A stretch of 64,000 nt of DNA, from contig OZ245838.1 of assembly GCA_965228735.1 (NCBI GenBank), positions 4,704,001-4,768,000 on the forward strand. The letters run 5' to 3'. The translations under genes were made by a program, and so were the position numbers. The DNA is from Planctomycetota bacterium. GTDB taxonomy: Bacteria > Planctomycetota > UBA1135 > UBA2386. Under the pieces are notes generated by a model, which was given only the letters and a program-made list of their open reading frames with translations, did no database searches and had not been told where the DNA came from. Positions 9,176 to 58,695 of this stretch are shown piece by piece. Every line of letters starts with the position of its first letter. The stretch's first letter is position 1.

Positions 9176-9203
9176 CGGTCGCATTTCGGCAGGCATGTGA
9201 CCC
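9176..9203 (-). other. dif-like recombination site 1
   Basis: Reverse complement reads GGGTCACATGC-CTGCCG-AAATGCGACCG. Confidence 0.6.
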
Positions 9204-9311
9204 CCTTCAGGTCGCGGACAGCCCGTCCGTGCGCCGACTCGCGCGTGCCGCCTAACCGGCAAGAGATGCGCATTCATGTTCTCGCCACGAGCCGGTGGCA
9301 GAATCGGACAC

Positions 9312-10217
9312 ATGAAGACCGTGATCTGCATTCTCGTGGCCGCGATGCTGGCTCTCGGAGTCGTGACTGGCTTGCTCGTTGGGTTGAGCGCAAGCCCAGT
9401 CGTCGGGGTCGTGTTGCCGCTCCTGTTCTCACTCCTTGGCGGTGCGGGTGGTTTCTTTGTTCTGAAAACCGATTTCTCGTCTGGCGGCCCTCGGCAGTCG
9501 CTTGTTGCCTACTCAGCCTGCGTGCTCAGCATCGCTACCGGAACGGGCCTTGGGGTCTACATTGGTATTGCTGAGCGAGGAGGGGCGCCGGCGTGGAGTG
9601 CCGTGGCCGGTGGCGAGAATCCGCTATTCCCTCCTGCGCTGAAGAACGACGGGGCGATTGGATGGATGCTGTTGGATGCGCGTCTGCACATGCTCGGCCT
9701 CGATCGCGACGAACGACGCGTAGTTCTGCAGCGAGTGAGCCACGAACAGGGCAGTGACCTGACGCAGTACCGCTCGGAGCTACGGCAAGCAGCGGAATCG
9801 CTAGAGAAGGCGGCTCCCGGTGAGGGAGTCCTTTCGAACGTCGGCGAATGGCAGGACCTCGCCCGTGAGGCTACACAGATCACTGAACTCATCGAGCTAG
9901 CGCCAACCGGCGACGAGTCAATCGGCTCCGCGCTCGAAGCCATGCACGGCAGGCTGGGTTACTTGAATGACGACGAGGACGATCGGTCGTTCATCAAGAG
10001 CAATGCAGCGGCGGCCGCGGCTGTCGAAGAGTTCAAGCGTGCGGCATTGCGGTTGCTGATCACCTACCGGGGTGCCCGCTCACCCTTGGAGAGCGCTAAC
10101 GCTCAAATGGCTGAGTTCTTGGAGAAGCACTCCCAGGCGGCCAGGGCCGCACTCGATGTCAAGCCAGGAAGGTTCCTCGCAAGCACTGGCTTCGACTCAG
10201 GGACAGCAGATTCGTGA
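9312..10217 (+). CDS. Hypothetical membrane protein (about 3 N-terminal TM segments)
   Basis: Hydrophobic N-terminus followed by a helical soluble domain. Confidence 0.7.
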   Translation: MKTVICILVAAMLALGVVTGLLVGLSASPVVGVVLPLLFSLLGGAGGFFVLKTDFSSGGPRQSLVAYSACVLSIATGTGLGVYIGIAERGGAPAWSAVAGGENPLFPPALKNDGAIGWMLLDARLHMLGLDRDERRVVLQRVSHEQGSDLTQYRSELRQAAESLEKAAPGEGVLSNVGEWQDLAREATQITELIELAPTGDESIGSALEAMHGRLGYLNDDEDDRSFIKSNAAAAAAVEEFKRAALRLLITYRGARSPLESANAQMAEFLEKHSQAARAALDVKPGRFLASTGFDSGTADS

Positions 10218-10393
10218 AATGGGCGCGTTGCTTGTTGCTTGGTGGATTGCAGCCTTCGTTGAAGCCGCGACCGCCAGCCGAATACCTTCCCGCAGCCGCT
10301 CGGCCTCTTGTCCGCCCTCAGCAGGGAGTCCGGGTTCCTGCTTGCACGTAGGCGGCCGTTGCCGGCGCCATTGCTGCCCGGACTGGCCTGCAG

Positions 10394-10927
10394 TCAGCGG
10401 CTGAGGATCTTCATCACGATGAGCGCGCCATCGTTCTCGTAGCCAGCTTCCGCCGCCGCAGCGAGTTGCTCACGGACCCATTGATCATCGAACAGACGCC
10501 ACCCACGCTCGCGAAAGTGGACCTCAAGCCCTGTCCGATCCGTTGAACGGGCGATCTTGCCTGTCGCGAGGCACAGAGTGACCGTCGGATCACGGCTGCA
10601 CATCCCGATCGAAGTGAGCTGGCTAGCTAGATTCGATAGCACGACGTCGCGGAGCTTCGAGTCAGTGAACAGCTTGAAGCGGTTCGGGTCGCGGAACTCA
10701 CCGTCGTTGAACCGCACGCCGTGCGAGTCGAAGTACGACTTGCACTCGACGACCAGCAGCTCGTTCGTCGCGCCGCGGTACGCAACGACGTCGATCTCCC
10801 ACCGTGGGGATGACGGACGACCGATCGCGACCTTCTGTGCCTTCGACAGCTCGACCTTCACGCTGGTGTCGGTCCAGTAGCCCTCGCGGCGGAGAAGCAG
10901 AGCGATCAGAGACTCGAAGGCGTCCAT
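10394..10927 (-). CDS. PD-(D/E)XK restriction-endonuclease-like protein
   Basis: AFESLI...EIDVVAY...VECKSY motif. Confidence 0.8.
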   Translation of the reverse strand: MDAFESLIALLLRREGYWTDTSVKVELSKAQKVAIGRPSSPRWEIDVVAYRGATNELLVVECKSYFDSHGVRFNDGEFRDPNRFKLFTDSKLRDVVLSNLASQLTSIGMCSRDPTVTLCLATGKIARSTDRTGLEVHFRERGWRLFDDQWVREQLAAAAEAGYENDGALIVMKILSR

Positions 10928-10946
10928 GTCAGGGCGTCCGATGCTC

Positions 10947-11576
10947 TCACGCGGGGCCAATGAGTGTGATCGGCTCCTCGTAGTGCCCCTTGACCTCCTC
11001 TGCGCTTGTCGCGTCACCCGTGTTCGCCGCGAGCAGGATTAGTGGTCTCCCGGGGTTGGCGTTGCAGACTTCTTGGACTGCATCTCGCAGATCGGCGTAG
11101 GTTTCGAACTCCGCGTGGGTTCCGAAGTAGGCCGCAAGAACGCGTAGTTGGGTCTCGACGACGAGGAGCTTCCACGCGGCGTACTTAACCCAGTCCTTCC
11201 CTTTCTTGCTCTCGGTCTCGGCGACCATCAACGGCGGGCCCCACGGTTCGTCTTGGTCCCAGACCATGACATCGATGGTCAAGTACTCGGAGTAGTCTTC
11301 GCTGTCCCGGTTCTTGATGTGCGCGACCTCGAGGTTCTTGTGCGAGAACACCTGCTTTCCGACCTCGGCCAACGCGCTAGTGACAACTGGCGTCCACGCC
11401 CTGTTGCCGAGCCACTTCTTCGGTAGCTCTTCCTCGGTTGCCAGGTGCTTGAAGAACATGGCCCCGACCTCTTCGGCGTTCGCTTGGCGCGTTTCCTTCA
11501 CGGGAAAGACGATAGCGCGCGTCGCGAATTGCGTCACGCCATGCGTGGCCACAGCGCGGCGTGAGCGCGCCGCCAC
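10947..11576 (-). CDS. Hypothetical protein, possible PD-(D/E)XK fold (start uncertain)
   Basis: EYLTIDVMVW...VAETES...WKLL pattern. Confidence 0.55.
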   Translation of the reverse strand: MAARSRRAVATHGVTQFATRAIVFPVKETRQANAEEVGAMFFKHLATEEELPKKWLGNRAWTPVVTSALAEVGKQVFSHKNLEVAHIKNRDSEDYSEYLTIDVMVWDQDEPWGPPLMVAETESKKGKDWVKYAAWKLLVVETQLRVLAAYFGTHAEFETYADLRDAVQEVCNANPGRPLILLAANTGDATSAEEVKGHYEEPITLIGPA

Positions 11577-11627
11577 CTGGTGCTAGCGACAAGGCACGGC
11601 CTCGCGGGCTTCGGCTAACCTCTTCTC

Positions 11628-11849
11628 TCAAGCCATTCGCGCACGCGCTTCTGCCTCGGCGTCGCCGCGATCGGCGAACAACGTCAGGTTCCGGCCGCAC
11701 GACAGCCCGCCGCGAAACTGCAGCTCGAGGTCGCGGAGCGAGGTCTCGAACAGGATATCGATGAGCTCGCTGTGATGCGTCGGGTCGACGACGGCCCAAA
11801 TCCGGTCGGAAGGGCCGAGCCGCATCGATCTCGCGTCGTTCCCGCTCAC
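11628..11849 (-). CDS. Small hypothetical protein
   Basis: GTGA-coupled to the upstream ORF. Confidence 0.6.
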   Translation of the reverse strand: MSGNDARSMRLGPSDRIWAVVDPTHHSELIDILFETSLRDLELQFRGGLSCGRNLTLFADRGDAEAEARARMA

Positions 11850-12322
11850 CGCGAGCCCTCGACTGCCGCCTGCAGCACTGCAATCGCCTCCCGCATCGCC
11901 GCCCGCAGCCGGTCGGCCTCGGCACGACTCTCAGCTTGGACTTGGTCGGCGAACTGGCGAACTAAGCCTTCGACGTCCATTGAGGGGGCTGCGGCCCTTG
12001 GGCGGCGCGTGCCGCGCTTTCTCGCCGGGTGCGCTGCTTGTTCCGTGCTCGCTGTAGCGGCGCCCTGTTGCTGCGACAGGAGGCGTCGCGCCGCTTTGAC
12101 GCTCGCCGCCGTGATCCGGGTGCCGTGCAGGGCGGCCTGCGCCTTCGCGTCATCGAGGGAGATCGCGGGGTTTTGGGTGAGGATGTGGAGCGCGACTAGG
12201 ATCGGCTCACGGACTTTCGGGTAGCGCGACTTCAGTTCGGTGAACTGTGCGGTCCAGGTGTTGGCGGGGGATGCGGGGGGCGTTTCGGTCGCGGATTCAA
12301 CCGCAGCTTCTGTCGTCGTCAT
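11846..12322 (-). CDS. Hypothetical protein, basic and coiled-coil, possibly DNA-binding
   Basis: ORF from ATG at 12322 with coding-like composition. Confidence 0.6.
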   Translation of the reverse strand: MTTTEAAVESATETPPASPANTWTAQFTELKSRYPKVREPILVALHILTQNPAISLDDAKAQAALHGTRITAASVKAARRLLSQQQGAATASTEQAAHPARKRGTRRPRAAAPSMDVEGLVRQFADQVQAESRAEADRLRAAMREAIAVLQAAVEGSR

Positions 12323-12501
12323 TCGAGTCTTGCGGGGTAGAGCGGGTTTGGCGGAAGCCTGCGGAGTGCATGCTCCGGCTGGCGAATGAGGTTCCGCCGA
12401 GCCATTGCATGAACGCTCAGCGTCCGCCCCATCATCAAGTCGTTCCTGCGGGATTGTGCGGGAACCCCCAAGTGTCAAGGACCGCCTGATCGGAGCCACC
12501 C

Positions 12502-12624
12502 CAGTTCGGCCAAACGGAGCCACCTCGCGAGGCCGGTTTCGGGTTGGCACAGAGCGTGGTCACCGTTCGGCACGAACGCCCGATCGCGTCCGGCACGAAT
12601 CGCGCTCAGTTCGGCCAAACGGAG
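12502..12624. repeat. 18-bp direct repeat CAGTTCGGCCAAACGGAG, two copies
   Basis: At 12502-12519 and 12607-12624, with two CGGCACGAA copies between them. Confidence 0.8.
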
Positions 12625-12754
12625 TCGCGAAAGCCCCTGCCCGGTTATCCGCGGCGGCGATTCCAGTTTGGCCCGGGAAACCGCGCGGTTCGACGGTCGC
12701 GGACTTCCGGCGCTCGGCGCCCACCGTGCGCGCCTCAGCCTAACGACAGTTAGG

Positions 12755-14035
12755 TTATTCGAACTCGGAGTGCGGCGACCTGCCCGGCAAGCTCGGACAT
12801 CGACTCGCGACTCGGCACCAAGGGTAGCTAGCGGTTGCGGGATCGAAGTCGCGAACGACGTAGACTTCATCGAGTTGCCGCAGCGATTCGAACCCTGTGC
12901 TCCGAGCTCTATCGATGAACTCATCCCAATCGACAAACGGCTCGGACGTGTGGACAACGAGCCATCTTTCAGCATAGGGCTCACGATCAATCGTGAACGG
13001 TTTGCTGTCCTTCACCTGGATGAGACGCTCCACTTCGTGATGTAGGTCAGCAGCGCTCCAAACCCTCACCTGTTCCGAGTGGGTGGTGAGCGCATCGAGG
13101 CGTTCGGCAGCAGTTTGGGCGGCCTGCATCGCCTGATAGCGCTCCCGCGAGCGCGGGATGTTGCGCTCGATCAGCTTCTGGTCGGTCAGTTCGACGACTT
13201 CGAACCCAATCAAGCCACCGCATTCGTCACGCCCAAGAACATCAGGAGGCGTCTGCGGCTTGGTCTCGACACGGGCCTGGACAGATCGCACTTTCCGCAC
13301 ACCCGCAGAGTTGAGTGAGTCTGTCAGGTCGCGGACGACTCCCAACTCGACGAGCTTCTTGTCGGGCCACGCACGGCCGCCGCCTGGCACCAGCATTCTG
13401 GGGCAGCGCCGGGCGCTAGCGCAGATTTCGCTGTGATCCTGAATGAGGCGGTGGACCCTCGACCCCAGGCCAAAACCCAGTCGGCTTGACAGATTCGCAG
13501 CGCGGACTGCTACCTGGCTAGCAGATGGGAGCGGCTCTAGGTTCACTTCGATCACGCGCTCCGACAACGCTGCGACAAAGCCAGCTTCGAAGACGGCGCT
13601 TGTGCCGCCGAGCTCGACCGCGACAGCTTCGATGTTCAGCGACGTCGTTCGCGGCAGGTTTGGGAAAATGGGACCTCGAACTAGTTGTCGGCGAAAGGCC
13701 CATGTGTCGCGCAGCGGCCACAGATCGAACGCCACGCCATCCGCGATGGCCCGGACACCACCAAATGCCGTGTGAGAAACTGCCTGAAGACCGCAAGCAC
13801 GAACCAGCGAATCGAGCTCGGTAGGACTTTCTACGTCCACCGCGATATCGATATCGCGCGGCTTGGCGTGAGCCCCCGAAAGGACGGCGTCTCGGACTAG
13901 CCCCCCAAGCACGAAGCCTCTCGTGCCGGATTGGTTCAACTCGTTCGCCACGACGTGAACGAGGCGCGCCGCTGGGGTTTCCTGCTCCAACCACAGGTCG
14001 AAACACCTACGAATCCATGCAGGATCAACCACCAC
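12755..14035 (-). CDS. CCA/poly(A)-polymerase-head nucleotidyltransferase fused to a PD-(D/E)XK-like C-terminal domain
   Basis: FVLGGLVRD...PRDIDIAV at the N-terminus; PPDV...GFEVVEL at the C-terminus; probable GTG start overlaps the dGTPase stop. Confidence 0.72.
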   Translation of the reverse strand: MVVDPAWIRRCFDLWLEQETPAARLVHVVANELNQSGTRGFVLGGLVRDAVLSGAHAKPRDIDIAVDVESPTELDSLVRACGLQAVSHTAFGGVRAIADGVAFDLWPLRDTWAFRRQLVRGPIFPNLPRTTSLNIEAVAVELGGTSAVFEAGFVAALSERVIEVNLEPLPSASQVAVRAANLSSRLGFGLGSRVHRLIQDHSEICASARRCPRMLVPGGGRAWPDKKLVELGVVRDLTDSLNSAGVRKVRSVQARVETKPQTPPDVLGRDECGGLIGFEVVELTDQKLIERNIPRSRERYQAMQAAQTAAERLDALTTHSEQVRVWSAADLHHEVERLIQVKDSKPFTIDREPYAERWLVVHTSEPFVDWDEFIDRARSTGFESLRQLDEVYVVRDFDPATASYPWCRVASRCPSLPGRSPHSEFE

Positions 14036-15401
14036 GGATCTCCTGGTGTAGACGACAAGCGTAGCCATCCGTCATTCCACACACATGATCCGTGACGAGC
14101 TGAAGCCGTAGATACTCCTCGGGCAGGCCGCCTCCCCAGTTCTTCTCAAAGACTCGCCGGTAGTTCTCGGAGATCAGGCCGTAAGCGCGGGTTGCAATCC
14201 CTTCCCGAATCTTCCGGTCTGGAGCCCCAGGACCGGCGTGCGCTGCCCCCATCCAGAAGAAGTCCATGAGGTTGCTGATGACGCGCCGACCGAGCAGTTC
14301 CAGCTTGACCGTTTCTGCACTCGGGTAGACGTGCGTTCTGGCGAACTTCTTGCACTTGTCGATCAACTCACCCTCTTCCGTGCCGTCCAGCAACTCGCCA
14401 TGGAATCTGCCCTCGACGATCTCTGACCGAATCTCTTGGAATCTTCGACACGCCGCCTCAGCCGCCTTCGCGATGAACTTCACGCGAAAGAACTGGGAGA
14501 GGGCCTCCTCTAGAGCTTGGCCGGAGAGGTTGCTTGCATGCTTCTCGATGTATTGACGCGACTCGCTGGCGAGCTTCTCCCCGATCGCGGACGTGGAGAT
14601 TGCCGCTTCGACCGCTGCCCATGACGTGACGGCCTTCTTGACGCCGTCTTCGATATCAACCACTGAGAAGCAAATGTCGTCAGCCGCTTCCATGAGCAGC
14701 GTGAGCGGATTCCTGGCACCGTCAGGAACATCCGTGTGCTCTCGCACTTTCGCCACGAGTTCCGCCTCGGACTGAAAGAACCCGGGCTTCTTGACAGCAT
14801 GCAGCTCGCCAAGCCCGTCCGACGACGCAGCATACTTTTGCAGCGCCGACATGGTGGCACAGGTCAGGTTGAGCCCGTCATCTCGAGCGAGAATCTGCAG
14901 GCGAGACACCAACCGGATCGTCTGAGCATTCCCTTCGAAGTTCTCGAAGTCAGTGCGATGGGGGCCCGAGAGATTCTTGATCTGGTCATCTCCAGCGTGC
15001 CGAATGAACCAATCGCGAATCGCTCCTTCGCCAGCGTGTCCGAAGGGCGGGTTCCCCAGGTCGTGCAGAAGGGCGACTGTCGCGACAATGGTCTCGATCG
15101 ATCTAGCGGCCTGTGCGTCAACCCGTCCCTCGCCTTCCTCCGACGAAGCGACGCAGCGAGCCAAGCCACGGGCAACCGACGAAACCTCCATCGAATGGGT
15201 CAGGCGTGTCCTGACCGCATCCGTGGGGTCCAAGGGAAAGACCTGAGCCTTGTCCTGGAGCCGCCTCACCGGTGAGCAGAAAACAGCCCGCCCGTAGTCT
15301 CGATCGAACGGAGTCCGTCCAACGTCGTCGGTCTGGTCGGGATCGCCGTCGGGGAGATCGGCGATGCGAACGGCTGACAGCAGCTTGTCCCAAGTCATCA
15401 T
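14025..15401 (-). CDS. dgt: dGTP triphosphohydrolase (HD domain)
   Basis: RRLQDKAQVF, RTRLTHSMEV, HDLGNPPFGHAGE, FEGNAQ, EAADDI and GMTD motifs. Confidence 0.93.
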   Translation of the reverse strand: MMTWDKLLSAVRIADLPDGDPDQTDDVGRTPFDRDYGRAVFCSPVRRLQDKAQVFPLDPTDAVRTRLTHSMEVSSVARGLARCVASSEEGEGRVDAQAARSIETIVATVALLHDLGNPPFGHAGEGAIRDWFIRHAGDDQIKNLSGPHRTDFENFEGNAQTIRLVSRLQILARDDGLNLTCATMSALQKYAASSDGLGELHAVKKPGFFQSEAELVAKVREHTDVPDGARNPLTLLMEAADDICFSVVDIEDGVKKAVTSWAAVEAAISTSAIGEKLASESRQYIEKHASNLSGQALEEALSQFFRVKFIAKAAEAACRRFQEIRSEIVEGRFHGELLDGTEEGELIDKCKKFARTHVYPSAETVKLELLGRRVISNLMDFFWMGAAHAGPGAPDRKIREGIATRAYGLISENYRRVFEKNWGGGLPEEYLRLQLVTDHVCGMTDGYACRLHQEIRGG

Positions 15402-15499
15402 CGAGAAGCGGCGCTCCACTCCGCTCGACGTCACATCGGCGACGCTCACTCTGTGGCGTGGCCCTTCGTCGTTCTATCGGGAACGGCCAAGAACCCGCC

Positions 15500-15945
15500 A
15501 ACGACAGCCGAGAATGTCCGTTGGCTCGCACCGGAAGAACACCCGCAGCCTCAGCCACCCCGGACGGGATGGGCGACCCTCGGTCGGAGGGTTATGTGAA
15601 CGCTAACCTCGTGGTGCAACTGAAGCAAACGGCGTGCGTTCTGATGCGTCCACCACCCTCGAAATCGGTTTCAGATTCTGGGCGTCCAGAGTCTCTCAGC
15701 CCCGGTGACCAGGCGAACGCTTGCTGTGCGCCAGTGGTTGTGACCGACGCAGGCCGAAGGCAGCGAGCGCTCGGACCAAGATCGCCCTGGAGGTAGGTCC
15801 TGCGGCCACCCGCGCCCAAGTCAGCCTCTCGTCGGCTCGGCCCTGGCTTGCTCCCGTGAACGAAGGTAGGAACGGAGTTGCTTCCCCGGGAAAGGCACGT
15901 CGGCAGAACTCCGAGGTCCTTTCGATGCCCTTTCGGGGTAGTTGT
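15500..15945 (+). ncRNA. Candidate structured RNA upstream of the RT
   Basis: About 560-bp intergenic gap with stems at 15576-15592, 15673-15694, 15873-15913 and 15926-15940; expression not demonstrated. Confidence 0.3.
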
Positions 15946-15962
15946 CCGGATCAGCATCCACC

Positions 15963-17873
15963 ATGGCCCAGAAGGACAACCAGCTCTGGAACGAACTGCT
16001 CGACATCAGGGAGCTGAAGAAGGGGTGGCATCAGGCTCACCACGAGTATCGGCGCGACTTCGCCGAAGATCCGTTGCATGTCGATGCATACGCCGCTGCG
16101 CTCGACAGGCACCTCGCCGACATCCGCCATCGGCTGAGTCGTGGCCGCTATCGACCTCGGCCAGCCCTTCGGTGTGAGGTCCCGAAGGGGCCTCTGGGGT
16201 ATCGCCCCGGGACGGTGATCGACATCGAGGATCGCGTCGTTCTGTATTCCGCGATCCGGCAGATCGCACCCGCGATCGACGAGCAACTCTCGGATTCCGT
16301 GTTCAGTTGGCGTCTCAAGAACCCGCTCCCGCGGAGCGACTGGATGTTCAAGGACACCACCATCGAGGACATGCCGTATCTCAAGAGCCGAACGGTGTCG
16401 AACCACATCGACCAGTTCGAATACTGGCTCTCGGCGTGGCCGGAGTTTGATAACGCCGGGCGAGCGGCGTTCACCGAGAAGGGGCATCGTTTCATGGCGA
16501 CTTGCGACATCGCCGCCTACTTCGAGAACATCCACCTCGGGATACTCCGTGACAAGCTGATGCAGTGGGTCCCGATCGAGCCGCGCATCATCAACCTCAT
16601 CGTGACGTGCCTGTCCTACTGGTGTCCAAGAACACCAAGCGGCGGGAACGAAGCACGCGGGATTCCGCAAGGGACCGGCGTTTCAAGTTTCCTCGGCAAC
16701 GTCTTCCTGAAGGGCCTGGATGACCGGCTCGAAGAACTCGCCAAGCAGTGCGAAGCGGACTACCAGAGATACATGGATGACGTTCGCTTCTTCGCCAAGC
16801 GACGCGAGGATGCTCGGCGTGCGATCCTGATCATGGAACGGACGTTGCGTGAACTGCATCTAAACGTGCAGTCCGCGAAGACCAAGATCCTCGACGAAGA
16901 CTCGGGAGAGATTAGCGAGGCGCTTGTGGATCAGCGTCTGGACGACATCGACGAGATGGAAGACGAGATTCGGGCGCGAGACGAAGACGACGAGGCTGCG
17001 AAGCGTGGCTTCCTAGCGAACCTCAAGCGCCTGGAAGGACGACAGTCGCGGAGCGACAGGCAGGCCATCAAGGCGGCGAGGAAGCCTCTGACTGGCCTCA
17101 CGTTGAGGCTGTTCAAGCGGTGGGTATCGTGCCACAGGTTGCTTGGCTCGCACGACTACGTGAAGCGGCTTCAGAAAGAGGTGGAGCGTACCTCGGACGC
17201 CAAGCTGACGAGCATCATCATACGCACGGCTCGTGACTTCCCCTCCCTACGGTCGATCGCGGGGTGGAGCATGAAGTTCATCCACAGCGAGCTGAACGTG
17301 TTCGCTCACCAGGAAGCGGAGTTACTTCGGGCGATTCGGAATCTCGCGCGGGTCCCCGAGGACGCCGCTGACCACGCTTGGAAAGTCCTGTTGGACACGG
17401 ATGCAGACCCATACCTCAGGATGCAGGCGGGGTTCCTGCTGTCGAGGACGGAGTTGACGAAGCAGCGCCTTAGCACGGTCGCGAACCGCTACGACCAGGA
17501 AACGGACTCGTTCGTGTCGCCCGTCTGGTGTCTCTTGCTGATCCAGCGACGGAGGCAGAGCGAAGTGCTGTTGGCAGACATGATGTCCGATCCCGTTGAC
17601 CGCGTCAGAAGGCTGGGGTGGATGTTCTACCGAGCTGCCAAGGACGAGGCGTGGTGTCGGAAACAGCTCGACTACGTGTTCGGCCCGGTGCGCGCAGCGC
17701 GCCTGTCCGGCTACATGCCGATTGTCTGGGCTGCGGCAAACTGTGGGACACAGGCGGTCCAGCGTGCCCTATTGGAAAAGGTCAACGTCGCGAAGGCGGC
17801 TTGCCTGCACGTTGATCTGCGTCCAACGCTCGAGGCGATCCAGGCACGATTGGAACGGGCTGCGACCGCGTAG
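15963..17873 (+). CDS. Reverse transcriptase, UG/Abi (DRT-like) type, with helical-repeat C-terminus
   Basis: VPK...RP, DIAAYFENI, GIPQG, YMDD and NVQSAKT motifs; no retron NAxxH/VTG motif and no maturase domain seen. Confidence 0.9.
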   Translation: MAQKDNQLWNELLDIRELKKGWHQAHHEYRRDFAEDPLHVDAYAAALDRHLADIRHRLSRGRYRPRPALRCEVPKGPLGYRPGTVIDIEDRVVLYSAIRQIAPAIDEQLSDSVFSWRLKNPLPRSDWMFKDTTIEDMPYLKSRTVSNHIDQFEYWLSAWPEFDNAGRAAFTEKGHRFMATCDIAAYFENIHLGILRDKLMQWVPIEPRIINLIVTCLSYWCPRTPSGGNEARGIPQGTGVSSFLGNVFLKGLDDRLEELAKQCEADYQRYMDDVRFFAKRREDARRAILIMERTLRELHLNVQSAKTKILDEDSGEISEALVDQRLDDIDEMEDEIRARDEDDEAAKRGFLANLKRLEGRQSRSDRQAIKAARKPLTGLTLRLFKRWVSCHRLLGSHDYVKRLQKEVERTSDAKLTSIIIRTARDFPSLRSIAGWSMKFIHSELNVFAHQEAELLRAIRNLARVPEDAADHAWKVLLDTDADPYLRMQAGFLLSRTELTKQRLSTVANRYDQETDSFVSPVWCLLLIQRRRQSEVLLADMMSDPVDRVRRLGWMFYRAAKDEAWCRKQLDYVFGPVRAARLSGYMPIVWAAANCGTQAVQRALLEKVNVAKAACLHVDLRPTLEAIQARLERAATA

Positions 17874-17946
17874 TTGCCGCGGATCTCTGCTTTCGTCTCC
17901 GCGATGCGTCGCTCGGATGGTGCAGCTTTCGGGGCCGCCTCGCGAC

Positions 17947-18819
17947 CTACGCCCCAACCGCCGCCCGCAGCCGCCCCCTGTCCACCCGCGCGTAGATCGC
18001 CGTCGACACGACCGATGCGTGGCTCAGCGCATCCTGAACTAACCGCAGGTCGCCGGTCTTCGCGAGCAGCCCGCAGGCGAACGTGTGCCGCAAGCTGTGC
18101 GCGCTCTTGCCGCGGATCTCTGCCTTCGTGAACCAGTCCGAGATGCGTCGCTGCGCGTGCCGCGTGGACACTCGCCTCCTATCCGCGAGGAATACCGGTC
18201 CCGATGCTCGATCGCCGACGAATCCGCGCAGTTTGCTGGCTAGCGCCTTCGGCACGAGCACCGTTGACGGCCGGTCGTTCTTCGCACGTCGAACCGTGAT
18301 CTCGCCGTGCTCGAGGTCGAGGTCCTCGATGTTGAGCGCAAGCGCGCTGCCTATCCGCATGCCAGTGCCGAGCAGCAGCTCGATGAGCATCCGGTCTCGC
18401 TCCGCATGCTCGCCCGTGGCCGCGGCGAGCACTGCGAGCAGCCGCTCATGCTCGTCGGCGTGCAGTGATTTCGGAGGGGGCGGGGAGCATCGAGCTCGAC
18501 GCAGAAGCCGTGCGGGGTTCGCGGCGACCAGTCCGGCGTCGTGAAGATGGGCGCAGAAGCAGCGGACGCTCGTACGCATCGCGTTGAGCGACGTGTTCTT
18601 CTTCGAGCCGCCGTGGCTGCTGACGCGCGCGGCGTCGTCAGCGAAGAACTGGGCGAGCAACTCGCGGCTCAGGCACGCGACCTTGCGTTCTGCGTCGCGG
18701 TCGTGAAGCCAGGCGATCAGCGCGGTCACGTGACGGCGGTACTGGTTGATCGTGTGCGGCGAGCGGCCGTCGGCGCGGAGCTGCACCAGGAAGGCTTGGA
18801 GGGCGTCTTGGAGGTCCAT
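17947..18819 (-). CDS. XerC/D-like tyrosine recombinase (element A)
   Basis: GMRIGS, AKND, HSLRH, LSH, IYA; same 873-bp length as the paralog at 53607. Confidence 0.92.
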   Translation of the reverse strand: MDLQDALQAFLVQLRADGRSPHTINQYRRHVTALIAWLHDRDAERKVACLSRELLAQFFADDAARVSSHGGSKKNTSLNAMRTSVRCFCAHLHDAGLVAANPARLLRRARCSPPPPKSLHADEHERLLAVLAAATGEHAERDRMLIELLLGTGMRIGSALALNIEDLDLEHGEITVRRAKNDRPSTVLVPKALASKLRGFVGDRASGPVFLADRRRVSTRHAQRRISDWFTKAEIRGKSAHSLRHTFACGLLAKTGDLRLVQDALSHASVVSTAIYARVDRGRLRAAVGA

Positions 18820-19183
18820 GGCTACATGCAGCCATGGGCGGGCCGGGGTCATCAAGTCACATTCCTGGGTCGACTGGCTCAGCAACAAGCAGTCCGTTTG
18901 TGTCCCAATTATCCCGACTCCATCAGCGTCCCTTGAACGGCCTGCCCAGTTCCTCACCATGTCTGATGGCCGACCGTCGCTTACAGCTCTCCGGTTGGTC
19001 AAGCTCGGCCCACCGACTCGCCAAAGGGCGGTGGGCTGGGCGTTCACTCGTGGCCGGGCATCGGAAAAATGGCCCAGGCTCGGGCATGGCAAGCCTGGGG
19101 CCGGGCAGCCGAGCTTCCATGCTTTGGCCCGGCTGCCGGAGTTCAGGCTAGCATTACGCCCCGATCTGACACAGTGGCAGATT

Positions 19184-19210: not shown

Positions 19211-19227
19211 CAAATCCGGCGCCTTCC

Positions 19228-21055: not shown

Positions 21056-21060
21056 GGGCG

Positions 21061-25505: not shown

Positions 25506-25506
25506 T

Positions 25507-25986: not shown

Positions 25987-25988
25987 GA

Positions 25989-49413: not shown

Positions 49414-49706
49414 CGATGGCCCTCCGTTTCGAGTTCGGGGAGCAGTTGGCCGAGGACCTCGCGATCGATTCCGCGGCGAGTGCTGTCGTCAGCCGGGCGT
49501 ACGACGCTGTGGCGTTCGCCGGATCTCGAGATGCGCTTTGGCCAGGACAGTCCAAGGGCGCCGTCCGATTTCCGCCGCAATGTGACGCCGTCTACGACGA
49601 GGTTGCCGTAGTAGAGCGACAGGTAGCCGAGTAGCCCCCCGCGGACATCGGCGTCCGAGGCACGAACCCAGGTCCTGACACGGATGGTGGGTGACGGAGA
49701 GCTCAT
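49410..49706 (-). CDS. SpoVG-like protein
   Basis: GLLGYLSL...VDGVTLR...LSWP...VRP. Confidence 0.68.
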   Translation of the reverse strand: MSSPSPTIRVRTWVRASDADVRGGLLGYLSLYYGNLVVDGVTLRRKSDGALGLSWPKRISRSGERHSVVRPADDSTRRGIDREVLGQLLPELETEGHR

Positions 49707-51538: not shown

Positions 51539-52710
51539 GAGAGTAGCTCCGCGAGGTGACGATCGTCGGAGCGGTAGATACAGCGGGCTTGGTCGGGGTC
51601 TCGCCTTTCAGGAACGATCGACATGTTGCTCCACTCCGCGACCAGGTGTTCGCCGCACTTCGAGCCGTAGAGCAGATCCGAAACTCCCCACAGGACGTTT
51701 CGCCACGCTTCGTAGCTCACCTCCGGTGGGACCCAGGCGAGGAGTTCTGCGGCCTCGGCGAAGTTCGCGCAATCGCCGCAAGTGCAACGCGCCTTGAACT
51801 GATACGGGCGCCGACTTGCCGATGCCCGCGCGTCGACCTTGGCGCCGTGCTCGGACCCTGCTGCGTTGTTGCGCGTGCGCGCCGCCTTCGCTTGACGGTG
51901 ACGCTTCCGAAGTCCGCTTGAGGTCGGTTGCGTGGCTCGTGACTCGAGAAGCGCTTGCAGCAGGGTGTCTGGCGGCGGGCGGATCCCTTCGACGCGGCCG
52001 CCGACGAGCTTGGGCAAGCCGTCGACGCACGTCCCGTCCGTGTCGAAGCGAATCTCCGGATATGGTTCCAAGCCGACGATCTCGCCCTCTGGATGATCGT
52101 CGCTGATCTCGATTCGTGGTGCTCCGCGAACCCACTCTCGGTGAGGGCAGACGCCGTTCGTCTCAATCGTGACGCCGCCGCTTTTCGGGCCTGCTCCGCG
52201 AACGTCGACACCAAGAAGCCAGCCGTTGCGGTTGCCGATCTTCGCCGCGAGCTCTGACTCGACCGCGTAGTGGAAGTGGACGCCCCTCTTGCTGGTTGAG
52301 AGTAGGTCGGTGCCGAAGCTGCCACCCATGAAACCGCTGAAGCTCGCCAGGCCGTCCCGGAACACGCGCTTGCTGATGCGACTCCCGTCTGATTCCTCGA
52401 CGACGACGAACTTCCAGCTGCGGTCGCAGTCGACCGTGAGCAGTCGGCTCGGCTTGGTGTGAATGCAGACATCCGCTCCGCGCGGGTCAGAGTCTGGCCC
52501 GAGCCAGTAGTCGCGAACTTCGTCCGGGTCGGTCGTGGGGCCCACGATTCGGCCGGCCTGCACCTCCTCTTCTTTCCAGGCGACCGTAGGGTGCTTGCCG
52601 CACGCGACCCCCTGCTTGTCAGGGTCGATTCGGTGATGGGATGGGGTAACGGCCCAGCCGATCTTGGCGTAGTGGAGTGCAACGAGGTGGGCAATGTCGC
52701 GGTCCTTCAC
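51535..52710 (-). CDS. Primase-polymerase with PriCT-2 domain
   Basis: YAKIGWAVTP, GKHP, VDCD, GVHFHY, GVDVRG; YEAWRNV.WG...EWS. Confidence 0.82.
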   Translation of the reverse strand: MKDRDIAHLVALHYAKIGWAVTPSHHRIDPDKQGVACGKHPTVAWKEEEVQAGRIVGPTTDPDEVRDYWLGPDSDPRGADVCIHTKPSRLLTVDCDRSWKFVVVEESDGSRISKRVFRDGLASFSGFMGGSFGTDLLSTSKRGVHFHYAVESELAAKIGNRNGWLLGVDVRGAGPKSGGVTIETNGVCPHREWVRGAPRIEISDDHPEGEIVGLEPYPEIRFDTDGTCVDGLPKLVGGRVEGIRPPPDTLLQALLESRATQPTSSGLRKRHRQAKAARTRNNAAGSEHGAKVDARASASRRPYQFKARCTCGDCANFAEAAELLAWVPPEVSYEAWRNVLWGVSDLLYGSKCGEHLVAEWSNMSIVPERRDPDQARCIYRSDDRHLAELLS

Positions 52711-53012
52711 TGGGCCCCCTTCTCGTGCTTCGAGGTCAACGCGGCGAGCCAGCGGCGCACCTCCTCGACCGTGGTCGCCCAGGATCCTGCGCTGCGGAAC
52801 CGGCGAATGCGCAGCCCGTCAACGCCTCGAAGAGTCCATCGCCAGCACGTCGCGGGAGTGACTGGTTGACCGTCGGGGCGCGGAGCCACGAAGCGGGCGA
52901 TACGGGGGATGCGGATGATCGTCTCGCCGATCCACCATTCTCTGGTGTTACGCGATGCGACTTCCTGTGGCGTCGTCATGTGGCAGACGATGCCGTGTGA
53001 ATCGGACAGCAA
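52707..53012 (-). CDS. DUF1580-like HTH protein
   Basis: PATCWRWTLRGVDGLRI....G.W.TT.EEVRRWL. Confidence 0.75.
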   Translation of the reverse strand: MLSDSHGIVCHMTTPQEVASRNTREWWIGETIIRIPRIARFVAPRPDGQPVTPATCWRWTLRGVDGLRIRRFRSAGSWATTVEEVRRWLAALTSKHEKGAQ

Positions 53013-53606: not shown

Positions 53607-54479
53607 CTATCGGCCGACTGCGACACGCAACCTTCTGCTATCAACGGACGTGTAGACCGTCGTCGACATGATCGAGCGGTGGTTCAATGCCGCCTGGACG
53701 ACTCGCAAGTCGCTCGTGCGGCTCAGAATCCTCTCGGCAAAGCTGTGTCGGAACGCATGGGCGCTCCTGCCAGTGATCTGGGCCTCGGCAAGCCACCCGG
53801 CGATCCGGCGTTGTGCGTGACGCATCGATACGCGGCGGTCGCCAGCCAAGAACACCGGACCGTCCTGACGTCCACGTAGGAAGCGCTGGATCTTCCGGGC
53901 GACCGCCTTCGGCAGCAGCGCCGTCGCTGGCCGATTACCCTTCGCGGAGCGCAGCGTGACCTCGCCGTGGGCGAAGTCGATGTCGCCGACATCGAGCGCG
54001 ATTGCGCTGCCGATTCGGATCCCACTCGCAAGGAGAAGTCGGATGAGCATCGCATCACGCTCGGCCTGCGGGCCTGGTGCGTTGGCGAGGACTGCGAGCA
54101 GGCGATCCTGCTCGTCCTGGCGCAAGGCTCGTGGCGGTGGGGGAGAGCACCTTGCTCGCTTCAGGAGCCGTGCGGCGTTCATCGGTGCGAGGCCGGACTC
54201 GTGCGCCCACTTGAAGAAGCAGCGCAGCGAGGTGCGCTGCGCGTTCGCCGACGTCGCCTTCTTCGTTCCGCCGCGCGCGCTGAGCTGTGCGGTGTCCGAG
54301 GCGAAGAATTCAGCGACGACCGCGGGCGTCATGGCCTCGATGTCGGTTGGTCGGTCAGTCGACGTGAGCCAGGCGATCAGGCTCGCTACGTGTCGCTGAT
54401 ACTGCTTCCGGGTGTGCTCTGATCGGCCGTCGGCTTGGAGTTGAACTTGGAAGTGCCCGAGGGCGTCTTGGAGGTGCAT
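53607..54479 (-). CDS. XerC/D-like tyrosine recombinase (element B)
   Basis: GIRIGS, AKGN, HAFRH, LNH, VYT. Confidence 0.92.
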   Translation of the reverse strand: MHLQDALGHFQVQLQADGRSEHTRKQYQRHVASLIAWLTSTDRPTDIEAMTPAVVAEFFASDTAQLSARGGTKKATSANAQRTSLRCFFKWAHESGLAPMNAARLLKRARCSPPPPRALRQDEQDRLLAVLANAPGPQAERDAMLIRLLLASGIRIGSAIALDVGDIDFAHGEVTLRSAKGNRPATALLPKAVARKIQRFLRGRQDGPVFLAGDRRVSMRHAQRRIAGWLAEAQITGRSAHAFRHSFAERILSRTSDLRVVQAALNHRSIMSTTVYTSVDSRRLRVAVGR

Positions 54480-54561
54480 GCCGCCATGAGGCCATCGTCC
54501 GGAACCTGCGTTCAAGTCGCATTCCGCCGCCCCTGTCGCTGCAACATCCAGTCCAGGGCCG

Positions 54562-54589
54562 ACGTCACATTCGGGAGGAAATCGGGCTT
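54562..54589 (+). other. dif-like recombination site 5 (right arm degenerate)
   Basis: ACGTCACATTC-GGGAGG-AAATCGGGCTT; 19/20 identical to 19229-19248. Confidence 0.5.
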
Positions 54590-54611
54590 CTTCGGTAGCT
54601 GAAGGTCGCCG

Positions 54612-54950
54612 TCAGAAGTCGTGCCCTTGCTTGTCGAGAAGGTGGCCGAAACCGTGGTGCATCTCCAGAGCGCCGAGTGCCTGCAGGCACCAGACGATGT
54701 TTCTATCTCGTGGGTGACCTTGAAACCCTCCCTTGCCATCGAGTCCGTCGAAGTGGGCTTCGAGTGAGTCGAGCTTCTCGTGGATGTAACTCTTCAGCCC
54801 TGCCTCGACGCGAAGGTCGTGGATTCGTTCTTTCGCTTTCTCAACAAGAAAGCCGGTGTCGACGGCGTCGACTCCCGACAGATCGTCCACAATCCCCCGC
54901 AAGGCATCGAGTGCTTTCCTGATCCCCGCATTGTTTGGGCGGTCGCTCAT
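54612..54950 (-). CDS. Hypothetical protein
   Basis: 112-aa helical ORF ending next to site 5. Confidence 0.6.
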   Translation of the reverse strand: MSDRPNNAGIRKALDALRGIVDDLSGVDAVDTGFLVEKAKERIHDLRVEAGLKSYIHEKLDSLEAHFDGLDGKGGFQGHPRDRNIVWCLQALGALEMHHGFGHLLDKQGHDF

Positions 54951-55010
54951 TCCTAGATGCTATTCCATCTGGTTGTGCGCAGAAACGCTGATGGAAGGGT
55001 TGGACACTAG

Positions 55011-56363
55011 CTAGCCGCCGGTCCACGAGCAGTCGACGACGTGGTTCTCGCCGGCTTCGAGCTCCGACAGTTTCATCCTTGGCGGCAGCTGACACTCCGT
55101 GAAGCTGCAGCCGCGAAACCAGGACGGTGGGATATCGCCTCGAAAAACGCAGGTCTCGAACACCACGTTAGTGAAGCTGACCTCGGTGTTGGGAGACGTA
55201 AAGTCGAGCCGTTGGTCTGCGTCCGGCGGCGGTTCGTCGACGACCAAGCGCTCAATCACGCATCGGTCGAGCGCGGTGACTCGGCCGGCGCCGACAACAT
55301 GCGGGCTAGACTTCTCGGCAGAGCGGAAGCGCACCTGGGAGAATTCGCTGACGCCGAAGTACGTCCCGTAGAACATCGAGTTCTCGAAGTCGACTGCGAG
55401 CATCTTCGTGCCAGATACCTGTCCGCCCCAGAAGCGGCACTCTTCGAACCGACAAGAGGACACTGTGAGATTCTCGCCGGGGCCCCAAGCTACGCCGCTG
55501 AACGATACATCGTCGAACCGCACGTCGTGCAACCTGCCGCTTGCGAATGTTGTTTCGACGAGCGACCCGCCGGAGAAGTCCGAGGCTGCCCAAGTAAGGT
55601 CCTGCAGATACTGGCGCCCCGACGCATTGCGCGGTCCAAGGAGAGCATCAGCCGCAATGCTTGCGTTCAGTCGCTGCAACGGTGTGTGCTCGGAGTTCTC
55701 CCGGATCAACAGAAGCCGGGAAACCATCACTTCGTCCTCGCGGTGCTCGGATGCCAGATGGTTGATGACGTCGCGACGGACGATGGTCTCTGAGCGAAGG
55801 ATTCGATCCTTCGTCGCCTCACGGTCGTTCGCGACCGTCCACATGTTCACGCGTGCCACCACGTCGGACGCGAGCCAGGTCGCGAGGGCGATCAACGCGA
55901 CGACGATCCCGATACTCGCCGCGATCCGTTTTCGTCGTCGAGCCTTCGCGAACGATAACCGTTGCCGCACTTTGACCACCGCCAGGCGCAGCTCGTCCGG
56001 CTCGTTCACGGTCTCGTAGTTGAGCTCTCGCATTATCGAGTCGAGCGGTCGCGGCCAGACGACGGGCTCGGTTCCGAGGCGCACGGGCGTCATCGCCTTG
56101 CCGATGGCGTTGGCGTGGTAGATCTCCGCTTGGCACCATTCACTGCACACCGAGCGCGGCGACACCACGGGCACTACGGCATCGCAGTCCCGTAGCTCCG
56201 CGCGGATGCGGTTCGTGAAGTCTTCTCCGATCAGCGTCTCGTGCGTGTCGTGGTAGGCGTGGAAGCCGCTCGCTTTGAGCTCCTGGTAGAGGACGTCCAC
56301 GTCTTTGGCGTCTTCTCTTGCGTAGCTGATGAATACGGATGCCTTCCGAATCGGGTTGCGCAT
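55011..56363 (-). CDS. TIR + TM + pentapeptide-repeat protein
   Basis: VFISYARED...SEWCQAEI; TM segment; F/L-periodic pentapeptide region. Confidence 0.88.
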   Translation of the reverse strand: MRNPIRKASVFISYAREDAKDVDVLYQELKASGFHAYHDTHETLIGEDFTNRIRAELRDCDAVVPVVSPRSVCSEWCQAEIYHANAIGKAMTPVRLGTEPVVWPRPLDSIMRELNYETVNEPDELRLAVVKVRQRLSFAKARRRKRIAASIGIVVALIALATWLASDVVARVNMWTVANDREATKDRILRSETIVRRDVINHLASEHREDEVMVSRLLLIRENSEHTPLQRLNASIAADALLGPRNASGRQYLQDLTWAASDFSGGSLVETTFASGRLHDVRFDDVSFSGVAWGPGENLTVSSCRFEECRFWGGQVSGTKMLAVDFENSMFYGTYFGVSEFSQVRFRSAEKSSPHVVGAGRVTALDRCVIERLVVDEPPPDADQRLDFTSPNTEVSFTNVVFETCVFRGDIPPSWFRGCSFTECQLPPRMKLSELEAGENHVVDCSWTGG

Positions 56364-56674
56364 GTCGAACCGGCCTTGGTTGGGCGGAGGTGCTCTCCGG
56401 CCCCATTACACCCGGCGCGGGCTTGGAGGTCAGCGGAATCCCGCGCGCAAGTCTCGGCCGCAGAACGAAGCATGAGGGGTTGAGCACCTTGACGTTCCGC
56501 TGAGACCTCATCTTGCGCTATCGGGCGTGCAGGTCGCTTGATGATGGGGCCGCCTCGAAGAACTAGTTCTCACCGCGCGTGGCTCGTCGTCGGAAAGCCG
56601 GTTGCTCCAACGAGAGGCCGCGGCTCTCCTCTTGGCATTGACAAGCTGCGGCAAAAGGACCGACACTTCCCCCG

Positions 56675-57079
56675 ATGGCTGAGAGGAAAACAGAGCACTT
56701 GCAGATGATCCAGGGGGTCGTGAGCCGGCTGTCCACGAACTCATTCTTGCTCAAGGGCTGGTCTGTGGTCCTCGTCTCAGCGCTCTTCGGACTCTCCACG
56801 CAAGTCGAGAACCGCACGCCTTTCCTAGCACTCGCCTACTTCCCTGCACTCGCGTTTTGGATCCTCGATGCCTACTTCCTTTCACAAGAACGCCGTTTCC
56901 GCGCGCTTTTCGACCATGTGCGTATGCAGTTGGAGGACAAGATCGACTTCTCGATGAGCACCGTTGCGCACGTTAGTCCGCGTTGCTCGTGGCCTGCCGC
57001 CTTCTTGTCACGAACGGTGCTCATCTTCCACGGGGTGGTCGTCGCTTCCATCTTTCTCGTGATGTTGCTCTTGGGGTAG
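56675..57079 (+). CDS. Small multi-TM protein associated with a ThsB-like TIR
   Basis: HLQMIQGVVSRLSTNSFLLKGW...FWILDAYFLSQER; 7 bp upstream of the TIR gene. Confidence 0.78.
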   Translation: MAERKTEHLQMIQGVVSRLSTNSFLLKGWSVVLVSALFGLSTQVENRTPFLALAYFPALAFWILDAYFLSQERRFRALFDHVRMQLEDKIDFSMSTVAHVSPRCSWPAAFLSRTVLIFHGVVVASIFLVMLLLG

Positions 57080-57086
57080 TGCATCG

Positions 57087-57578
57087 ATGGCCCGCATCAT
57101 CTTTCCCAGTTTCCACTACGAACGGGATGCGTGGCGCGCTGGCGTCGTCCGCAATTCGTGGCGGACCCAGGGTTTCAAGGCTTCAGGCTTCCGTGACGGA
57201 GCTCGATGGGAGCAGGTAGAGCGCCACGGCAAGGAAGCGGTGGAGCGCTGGATTGAGGATCAGCTCAAAGGGGCTTCTGTGACCATCGTCCTCATCGGTG
57301 CGCAGACTGCAGAGCGCGAGTGGGTCATGCACGAGATCCGGCGCAGCTGCGCGCTCCGGATGGGGCTCGTTGGTATTCGCATCCACGGCATCAGAAACAA
57401 TCACCGGCTCGTCGACGTCGCTGGCGCCAACCCTTTCGATTCTCTCTGGTATGATTCGCCTGGCGGTGTTCGTCAGTACTTGTCAAGCATCTACAGCACC
57501 TACGACTACGTGGCGGACAACGGCTACCAGAATCTTGGTGCGTGGATCGAAGCAGCGGCGCGTGCGGCAGGTCGATAG
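57087..57578 (+). CDS. Thoeris ThsB-like TIR protein (DUF1863)
   Basis: FPSFHYERD.WR...VRNSW; WIEDQL...SVTIVLIG..T..REWV..EI. Confidence 0.88.
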   Translation: MARIIFPSFHYERDAWRAGVVRNSWRTQGFKASGFRDGARWEQVERHGKEAVERWIEDQLKGASVTIVLIGAQTAEREWVMHEIRRSCALRMGLVGIRIHGIRNNHRLVDVAGANPFDSLWYDSPGGVRQYLSSIYSTYDYVADNGYQNLGAWIEAAARAAGR

Positions 57579-57671
57579 CTGCTTAGCCCGCGTAGAGTTT
57601 GCGGTAGGCCCCAGCGCTGTTGGGCGATGCCTGCTCATTTCTCCACGGCTTCGCCGCAAGCACGATCTAGG

Positions 57672-58010
57672 CTAGCCCGATAGACACGCTAGTGAGGGCG
57701 GCCGAACTGCTTGGTCCGTAATTGCTTGCCAAGCATTACTAGCCTTCGCAGGTATCACGGTCTCGGGCACGCCTGCACGGATCGCCCAGGTCCGTTCCCG
57801 ATGGACCCAAGTAGATAGCCGAGAGTTCACGGAGTCGACTACGAGAACACGCGTCGCGTTTCGAATGGCTGAGAACACTTGTTTCTCGAGGCCCTGGGTC
57901 AGGTCGAGCGAAACGTAGTCGATCCAAGTGGGAAAGCCGTGACGGCGAAGAAAGCCCTCAAGGCTTCTAGCGAGAACGGCGTCACGCCATGAGTAGCTGA
58001 CGAAGATCAT
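57672..58010 (-). CDS. Stand-alone TIR domain protein
   Basis: IFVSYSWRD...WID...STWVHRE; ATGA overlap with the upstream gene. Confidence 0.82.
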   Translation of the reverse strand: MIFVSYSWRDAVLARSLEGFLRRHGFPTWIDYVSLDLTQGLEKQVFSAIRNATRVLVVDSVNSRLSTWVHRERTWAIRAGVPETVIPAKASNAWQAITDQAVRPPSLACLSG

Positions 58011-58582
58011 TCGGAGGGATCGTCTTGATGTGAATCCCGGGCAACGAGAACACGCCCCGCTCCATCGGCTTCCCCCTCGATGATCGCATTCGGAACGTAG
58101 CTTATGGCTTCGGCAACGTTCCAGTCGCCTCTCGGAGTCAGGAACTTGGTCGAGACCTGCACGACGCAGCCCCCTCCCCGCACTTGCATCGCCTTCGTGC
58201 TCCTTGCCCATGTTGGGCCAACTGCCTTGAAGAGCAACTGGAAATTGTCCGGGCGCCCTACTGTCTCGACGGGTCCCTCTACGTCGCTGGTTTCCCTAAC
58301 GGCTTTGAGGACTCCGCCCTTTAGCGCGTCGATGAACTGCCGCGGGTCGATTCCAGCGTATTCACTAGGTGCGTAGAAGACGAAGGGGCGGAAGAAGAGG
58401 CAGGTGAAGAAGCCACCGGCAACGAGCACTGGGAAGGCGGTCACGAATATGACGAGACTCAGTTGGACGTTGCCTTCAGACTGAGTAGCGGCGATTCCGA
58501 CAACGGTCTCAGTCAGCCCAACAAACGCCGCAATCACCCAAAGGGGAGTGAGTCTCTTTTCTATCGGCTTGTCGTCAGGCAT
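58007..58582 (-). CDS. 2-TM membrane protein with beta-rich C-terminus
   Basis: LTPLWVIAAFVGLTE...FYAPSEY. Confidence 0.72.
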   Translation of the reverse strand: MPDDKPIEKRLTPLWVIAAFVGLTETVVGIAATQSEGNVQLSLVIFVTAFPVLVAGGFFTCLFFRPFVFYAPSEYAGIDPRQFIDALKGGVLKAVRETSDVEGPVETVGRPDNFQLLFKAVGPTWARSTKAMQVRGGGCVVQVSTKFLTPRGDWNVAEAISYVPNAIIEGEADGAGRVLVARDSHQDDPSE

Positions 58583-58667
58583 CTCTAGTCTCCGTATCTG
58601 GGCGGGTGTTCCTCGGGGCTTCCCTTCCTCGGTTGCGCCGAAACCCGTCAACGAATGTATTTGAGTC

Positions 58668-58695
58668 ATGGCGCATGCCAAAGGAAATGCGCCCC
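58668..58695 (+). other. dif-like recombination site 6
   Basis: ATGGCGCATGC-CAAAGG-AAATGCGCCCC. Confidence 0.55.

Follow-up and report, generated by a model that had tools for sequence, protein, structure and literature searches.

A probable dif-module-like exchange system on tRNA islands of a Planctomycetota genome, likely to be run by the islands' own Xer-like recombinase

Why should a genomic island that already has an integrase carry a second tyrosine recombinase gene, and what is the short palindrome that recurs around it? The question is raised by a 64,000-nucleotide stretch of a Planctomycetota genome (contig OZ245838.1, positions 4,704,001 to 4,768,000; hereafter the window), which contains two islands, A and B, stacked at a tRNA(CAT) gene 1.4 kb left of the window. 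Integrase, primase, Xer-like, ParB-methyltransferase, DUF5681 and Rhs genes are present in each island. A first-pass annotation, made from the sequence alone, had listed six dif-like sites and proposed that the element's own Xer-like enzyme captures, inverts or swaps defence cargo at them. We report here that the sites form a family linked to the recombinase gene in relatives, that they are placed between genes and that homology breaks fall inside them. We conclude that the islands probably carry a dif-module-like exchange system, and that it is likely to be run by the island's own recombinase.

All six sequences were found at the places and on the strands originally given for them (Table 1). 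Allowing up to three mismatches, the consensus first proposed matched the window seven times (five places, two of them read on both strands), against 0.12 expected; it recovered four of the six sites together with a new place at 49561, but failed on 28329 and 54562. The geometry had been described as 11-6-11, of which the two arms and the 6-bp spacer stand, but the two outermost bases carry almost no information and the conserved part is 9-6-9. Information is confined to 24 bp, with the motif GTCRCATKC-N4-GG-RAATGYGAC, in which a 9-bp arm stands on each side of a spacer that mostly ends in GG.

When a matrix built from the six sites was run over the whole 7.19-Mb genome, six more places scored above every background position, namely 49561, a pair a short way past the right end of the window and a group of three in a second region, close to a tRNA-Asn gene. 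The motif therefore has 12 copies genome-wide, every one within two island regions, and high-scoring sites do not form a genome-wide background. Scored with a matrix from which each was left out in turn, 19228, 28788 and 9176 gave 29.6, 28.7 and 25.6 bits, respectively, and 28329, 58668 and 54562 only 16.6–18.8 bits, a level that 13–19 genome positions also reach. With relatives included in the matrix, 28329 was the weakest at 17.9 bits (best background 17.7) and the other five sites scored 27.6–37.7 bits. The match at 49561 lies in a conserved core gene, and none of 32 homologous genes holds a positive-scoring match. The statement that every spacer differs is true of the six window sites, yet three of the 12 sites in the genome have TACAGG. 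In island A the orientation alternates (-,+,-,+), as had been noted, but in island B four successive sites are all + (54562, 58668 and the two right of the window).

The two Xer-like proteins belong to the tyrosine recombinase superfamily by their R-K-H-R-H-Y catalytic set (R155, K180, H241, R244, H267 and Y276 of recombinase A, invariant across 26 homologues) and their two-domain fold, and the best structural matches are XerA and XerH. Recombinase A scored below every family cut-off (144 bits against 335 for XerC, 125 against 330 for XerD, 69 against 267 for XerS and 139 against 220 for XerA), and the integron integrase model TIGR02249 gave 82.9 and 82.2 bits, where 265 is the cut-off. Genes that are likely to be the host's xerC and xerD are located elsewhere in the genome; the Xer-like proteins are 27–32% identical to this pair, which falls outside their clade in a quick version of the recombinase tree. 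The family is large, with 1040 matches among 8000 scored. Around homologues we collected 55 genome loci (numbered L), mostly titled Planctomycetota, and a metagenome scan gave six short loci; a viral collection yielded only distant recombinases (15 loci) and no exact site.

We scanned the 55 loci (818 kb) with the matrix from the 12 own-genome sites, which is the clean test, later matrices having been partly trained on the loci that they scored. There were 72 matches above 15 bits, compared with 0–2 in five shuffles and one in the 15 viral loci. With a refined matrix, a site was present no more than 700 bp upstream of the recombinase gene in 29 of the 33 loci with at least 57% identity, and over equal lengths 59 sites lay upstream against four downstream. 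In a survey of 339 genomes (class-level and order-level searches gave the same 339), the site pattern occurred in 36 of 66 genomes with the recombinase against 28 of 273 without it; for the closest recombinase clade the count was 17 of 18 genomes, and for a more distant clade 19 of 48. In one genome with a distant recombinase (G040) all nine islands carry sites, 6–12 kb upstream and mostly with a variant left arm; a de novo palindrome search around distant recombinases found nothing beyond variants of the known site. Islands hold up to six sites, almost exclusively on the cargo side. In the sister recombinases of L031 and L036 the adjacent site has opposite polarity, with no clean inversion traceable. 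The two half-sites listed by the first-pass annotation are in place, and ahead of the recombinase gene such a single arm adjoins a conserved TTG box in 21 of 34 loci. This box is a putative promoter by its conservation; a sigma-70 scan found no consensus promoter at recombinase A, and the window was without a match in Rfam.

The sites are thus private in the sense first proposed, being tied to the island Xer-like gene across relatives and distinct from the host dif. The canonical host dif lies at 1.26 Mb beside the skew maximum, some 3.4 Mb from the islands (4.70–4.78 Mb), which are near the replication origin. Might host XerC and XerD nevertheless act on the sites, as they do on pdif, leaving the island recombinase with another job? 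The sites share the register of dif, the common variants of the left arm match the XerC arm of the host dif at six of nine bases, and there are regions and genomes that have sites and no recombinase match. However, the host dif has the inner bases ATAA/TTAT, TTAT occurs in none of 194 right arms, and the host dif itself scores -12 bits; both site arms are of one type, and it is the recombinase gene that the sites track, with an arm abutting its putative promoter. We consider a host-driven system very unlikely.

If recombination takes place at the sites, homology between related islands should break there. It can be seen that 98% identity between islands A and B over 1.7 kb begins inside site 28788, the left side being unrelated; the partner site is its counterpart in island B, a short way past the right end of the window. 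Across all alignments that reach a site centre (n = 35, both directions counted and some stretches duplicate), 27 ended within 20 bp and six ran past 40 bp, and the stop rate at the site was 0.77 against 0.10–0.31 in the preceding 20-bp bins. Homology breaks between islands therefore fall inside sites, as the original proposal predicts. Among 209 distinct sites there were 35 pairs with one common flank only and seven with both. One DUF5681 block occurs together with both its spacers in different surroundings in L008, L011, L014 and L138, and the methyltransferase gene is on the recombinase's strand in eight loci and on the opposite strand in six.

A palindrome that serves as an operator for an island or host regulator, and near which synteny breaks only because it is intergenic, might produce part of this picture. 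Ninety-three of 97 sites are intergenic, where chance would place 74% within genes. That 29 of 84 lie between divergent genes and that an arm stands at the putative recombinase promoter would suit an operator. Against this, 15 of 84 sites lie between convergent genes, many abut stop codons, and outside the islands host genes are not preceded by sites. Alignments stop within the 28 bp itself, and spacers are shared according to flank, which an operator would not produce. We regard the operator as highly improbable. A host regulator box was rejected, there being no high-scoring sites outside the two island regions.

Since exchange by a tyrosine recombinase would take place across the spacer, we compared spacers in the pairs with one common flank. 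Base 1 of the spacer agreed in 14 of 15 pairs with a common left flank (left-flank pairs) and in 18 of 20 with a common right flank (right-flank pairs), compared with 0.34 for unrelated pairs. No more than one spacer difference was seen in 17 of 20 right-flank pairs against seven of 15 left-flank pairs; cluster means were 0.82 and 1.64 differences (p = 0.036; bases 2–4 alone, p = 0.068), and unrelated pairs in the first set had a mean of 3.1. As a general feature, then, the idea that all spacers differ does not hold: recombining partners tend to share them. An early reading, in which the spacer always travels with the right arm, was softened by the larger pair set and by the pair L124/L125. 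That exchange occurs inside the spacer, with a match needed beside the left arm and tolerance in the middle, is modestly supported by these comparisons, and a one-sided exchange of the VGJ-phi kind is possible by analogy.

The arrangement of neighbouring sites bears on a different explanation, namely that the recombinase serves, with the site beside its gene, to resolve multimers of an excised, primase-replicated island, like cer or a resolvase beside res, and that extra sites and swaps are by-products of cointegrates and were not selected for cargo exchange. One site stands beside the gene in most loci, the island core encodes a primase and an integrase, and a triple repeat 44–224 bp from sites (see below) resembles accessory sequences; a single recombinase with an adjacent site is also the layout of XerS/difSL, as far as the part of the source available describes it (PMC5357621). 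However, of 76 pairs of neighbouring sites 51 are inverted and 25 direct, and inverted pairs do not serve dimer resolution. Islands with up to six sites, nearly all on the cargo side and often abutting stop codons, are also hard to reconcile with it, as are the single-gene and empty blocks among relatives, where blocks range from 38 bp to 15 kb. A resolution unit is therefore unlikely as the primary role. The 25 direct pairs also contradict a strict alternation of orientation, although some of them could stem from missed degenerate sites. Separately, inverted pairs only 38–112 bp apart, resembling empty blocks, were seen in L136, L149, L152, L162 and L041 and in L182–L188.

Several observations weigh against exchange by the island's own enzyme. 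The second island region (genome 7162521–7190687; L002 and L003), beside tRNA-Asn and rich in insertion sequences, has three sites and no recombinase gene; seven genomes without a recombinase match carry two or more sites; and the distant recombinase clade is mostly without an adjacent site (three of 19 loci have one). The later matrices and the genome pattern were partly derived from the loci and genomes that they scored, and kin are not independent. From the flank analysis 1722 ambiguous site pairs were set aside. The one-sided spacer signal grew weaker as data accumulated, from a clean first set to p = 0.017 and then p = 0.036; four of 15 left-flank pairs have identical spacers, and L124/L125 joins one flank to opposite arms. 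Of 21 window cargo proteins, only four have homologues in the fetched loci, and in no case do these form a matching block bounded by sites. Finally, in contigs from eight public sequencing runs compared with 9050–29049 there was no rearranged joint at any site, contigs being a form of the data that drops rare variants; long contigs of runs X1, X2 and X7 span sites 1 and 2 in the assembled order, and at sites 3 and 4 contigs of X1 and X2 do the same. No RNA run was listed among those that contain the sequence. A loose end at 28792 was considered as a rearranged joint and rejected, as it is the island B copy.

The 24-bp sites mark where these tRNA-integrated islands differ in their gene blocks. 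Taking the points above together with the earlier evidence, we favour an exchange system in which the island's 290-aa Xer-like recombinase is likely to recombine these sites and would delete, invert or exchange whatever block lies between them. From the chemistry of the Xer family, each 9-bp arm would be bound by a single monomer, and strand exchange would span the 6-bp spacer. Judging from the site pairs with one common flank, exchange probably depends on agreement at spacer base 1 (classes T, G and C) and on the common GG at bases 5–6, and would tolerate mismatch at bases 2–4, the spacer tending to go with the right arm. Islands stacked at one tRNA gene or coexisting in a cell would trade blocks by cointegration followed by resolution, as dif modules do. 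The single arm beside the putative promoter would allow the recombinase to regulate its own gene, and entry at the tRNA gene would be handled by the separate integrase. A bolder version is possible, if doubtful: a self-contained platform, neither integron nor dif module, in which one-sided exchange at private sites requires only a match at spacer base 1, in T, G and C classes, so that blocks with defence or other cargo assort freely among stacked Planctomycetota islands and chimeric islands result.

Table 1. Sites, recombinase genes and other features of the window.
Feature	Position	Strand	Remarks
Recombinase A, Xer-like tyrosine recombinase	17947..18819	-	290 aa
Recombinase B, Xer-like tyrosine recombinase	53607..54479	-	290 aa; 57% identical to A
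Site 1	9176..9203	-	spacer CTGCCG; 30.8 bits; edge between island A primase core and cargo
Site 2	19228..19255	+	spacer GGGGGG; 35.9 bits; about 410 bp upstream of recombinase A start
Site 3	28329..28356	-	spacer TCGGGG; 17.9 bits, weakest; overlaps HNH gene stop codon
Site 4	28788..28815	+	spacer TACAGG; 98% identity to island B over 1.7 kb starts inside
Extra match	49561..49588	-	24 bits; inside small core gene 49410–49706; uncertain status; overlooked at first
Site 5	54562..54589	+	spacer GGGAGG; 27.6 bits; about 80 bp upstream of recombinase B start
Site 6	58668..58695	+	spacer CAAAGG; right arm faces DUF5681 gene, an arrangement recurring in relatives
Half-site (single arm)	18855..18864	-	abuts conserved TTG box, putative promoter of recombinase A
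Half-site (single arm)	54515..54524	-	equivalent place ahead of recombinase B
Triple repeat of CACCGTTG (two direct, one inverted), putative accessory	19184..19210	+	reads toward site 2
Second triple repeat of CACCGTTG, putative accessory	28276..28303	+	reads toward site 3
Block, sites 1–2, 10 kb	9204..19227		dGTPase 14025–15449, UG21 reverse transcriptase 15942–17873, recombinase A
Block, sites 2–3, 9 kb	19256..28328		hydrolase, collar-domain gene, DUF5681, ParB-methyltransferase 25989–27281, PDC-S31 27417–28211
HNH endonuclease gene	28354..28788	-	fills the 459-bp interval between sites 3 and 4
Block, sites 5–6, 4.1 kb	54590..58667		TIR genes 55011–56363, 57087–57578, 57672–58211; PDC-M50A 56675–57079
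Island A integrase	3909..5276	-	separate from Xer-like gene
Island A Prim-Pol primase	5987..8734	+
Island B integrase	47900..49135	-
Island B AAA helicase, Prim-Pol and DUF1580 genes	49703..53012	-
tRNA 3'-end copy	43088..43108	+	island A/B junction; further copies lie 1.4 kb to the left and 16.8 kb to the right of the window

The blocks bounded by the sites are listed in Table 1. Sites 5 and 6 had been said to enclose the TIR cluster, which is correct for three TIR genes and the PDC-M50 pair, but a fourth TIR gene (46449–47768) is outside any site pair. A system specific to defence is not borne out by the relatives, where defence is a minor part of the cargo: 11 of 106 cargo-side proteins match PADLOC at 1e-8, and most are without a family. 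None of the defence modules of the window was found site-bounded elsewhere in the fetched loci. Defence is part of the cargo and does not define it. The dGTPase and the UG21-type reverse transcriptase genes lie back to back, directly downstream of recombinase A (14025–17873).

Further conserved elements were noticed close to the sites. The CACCGTTG triple repeat occurs three times in the genome (the two in Table 1 and one at genome 7186206), each 44–54 bp from a site, and in 12 of 13 further loci it lies no more than 224 bp from a site and points to it. Between the adjacent site and the recombinase start, the motif GAGCGGTTCCTGC is conserved in L006, L007, L019, L021, L033, L035, L036 and L040. 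In five loci of the distant clade (L039, L044, L045, L049 and L053) a short gene precedes the recombinase where the site would be, and its product only partly clusters with the recombinase family.

The possibility that the sites are attachment sites of the island integrases was rejected, as attachment uses a repeat of another sequence, the 3' end of the tRNA. On either side of the tRNA-end junctions (window 42912–43276) stand direct repeats of TGTGCAAC, which are possibly arm sites of the island integrase. Two further copies of the same tRNA 3' end, at genome ~4807010 and 4809828 (39–42 kb to the right of the window), suggest that more islands may be stacked in that direction; the stretch gave no sites. 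In island A, the 3' part of the integrase gene is tripled with a 503-bp period at near 100% identity (2827–4256), which may be a real amplification or an assembly artefact, and a further partial copy is found at 44946–45476. The end of the fourth TIR gene and the DNA next to the integrase (47529–47919) are duplicated in island A at 20816–21189, with 77–88% identity. The Rhs protein of 2096 aa (34980–41270) and its island B copy share a stretch of 93% identity and diverge toward the end.

How does such a system compare with those already known? It had been called integron-like, which fits loosely, in that a recombinase gene stands beside a primary site. Exchange in integrons is single-stranded and resolved by replication; in the islands the spacer leans to the right flank (p = 0.036 by cluster; p = 0.068 for bases 2–4). 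Integrons are defined by long folded attC sites and cassettes in one orientation. The island sites, by contrast, are single 24-bp palindromes, the blocks range from less than 0.1 to more than 10 kb, occur in both orientations and can include the recombinase itself, and the Xer-like protein fails the integron integrase model (83 against 265). In a shufflon (Rci/sfx) the sites lie inside a gene and coding ends are swapped, unlike the intergenic sites described here. What integrons (see PMC4792948) do share with the islands is the recombinase gene adjacent to the primary site, variable cargo upstream and defence genes in the cargo. Integrative mobile elements exploiting Xer (IMEX), such as VGJ-phi and CTX-phi, are described in the accessible parts of two sources as using host XerC/XerD to integrate at the chromosomal dif (PMC5357621; PMC3442271); they give a precedent for Xer exchange between sites with a central match on one side only, whereas the islands are bounded by tRNA 3' repeats far from dif and encode their own enzyme. 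The islands are neither integrons nor IMEX.

The single-recombinase systems XerS/difSL, XerH/difH and XerA, so far as the same partial source goes, resolve chromosome dimers at one site (PMC5357621). They resemble the islands in having one recombinase, an imperfect palindrome and a gene adjoining the site, but the sites described here are numerous and occur only in islands, and the protein scores too low for the XerS and XerA models. Acinetobacter GR13 plasmids have a core gene tyr13, and so are dif-module carriers with an element-encoded tyrosine recombinase, but the portion of the text available attributes their dif modules to the action of XerC/XerD on pdif sites and names no private site for tyr13 (PMC9455709).

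The closer analogue is the Acinetobacter dif module, bounded by pdif sites and described, in the parts of the sources at hand, on Rep_3/OrfX plasmids as well as within chromosomal dif-module islands (PMC13141974; PMC12907356). To that extent the likeness is considerable: a 6-bp spacer with an arm on each side, sites with polarity at the edges of accessory blocks, two kinds of block according to the arm that faces inward, exchange between related elements at the sites, and a spacer that is more conserved on one side. The differences are that the arms of the island sites lack the XerD sequence and both resemble one arm, that a recombinase gene stands beside the first site, that the carrier is a tRNA-integrated island, and that one third of neighbouring sites are direct, without strict alternation. 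In the same incomplete text, pdif events need identical spacers or one mismatch beside the XerC arm (PMC13141974), whereas island partners differ at 2–4 spacer bases in eight of 15 left-flank pairs and keep base 1; 17 of 20 right-flank pairs stay within one difference. The system works like dif modules without being one of them, and is most likely a self-encoded variant of dif-module shuffling.

A literature search, with most subscription papers and supplements outside its scope, turned up no account of a recombinase encoded by an island and provided with private sites for modules. Accessory genes are shuffled at dedicated sites in two described ways, by integrons and by host-driven dif modules; an island with its own Xer-like enzyme and its own sites would, if the proposal is true, be a third and portable form, and would account for the renewal of cargo in the defence-rich islands of a little-studied phylum. 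Should the relaxed spacer rule hold, it would bear on how tyrosine recombinases handle mismatched overlap regions and would offer an orthogonal recombinase-site pair. With one 290-aa protein and a 28-bp site, the proposal is directly testable.

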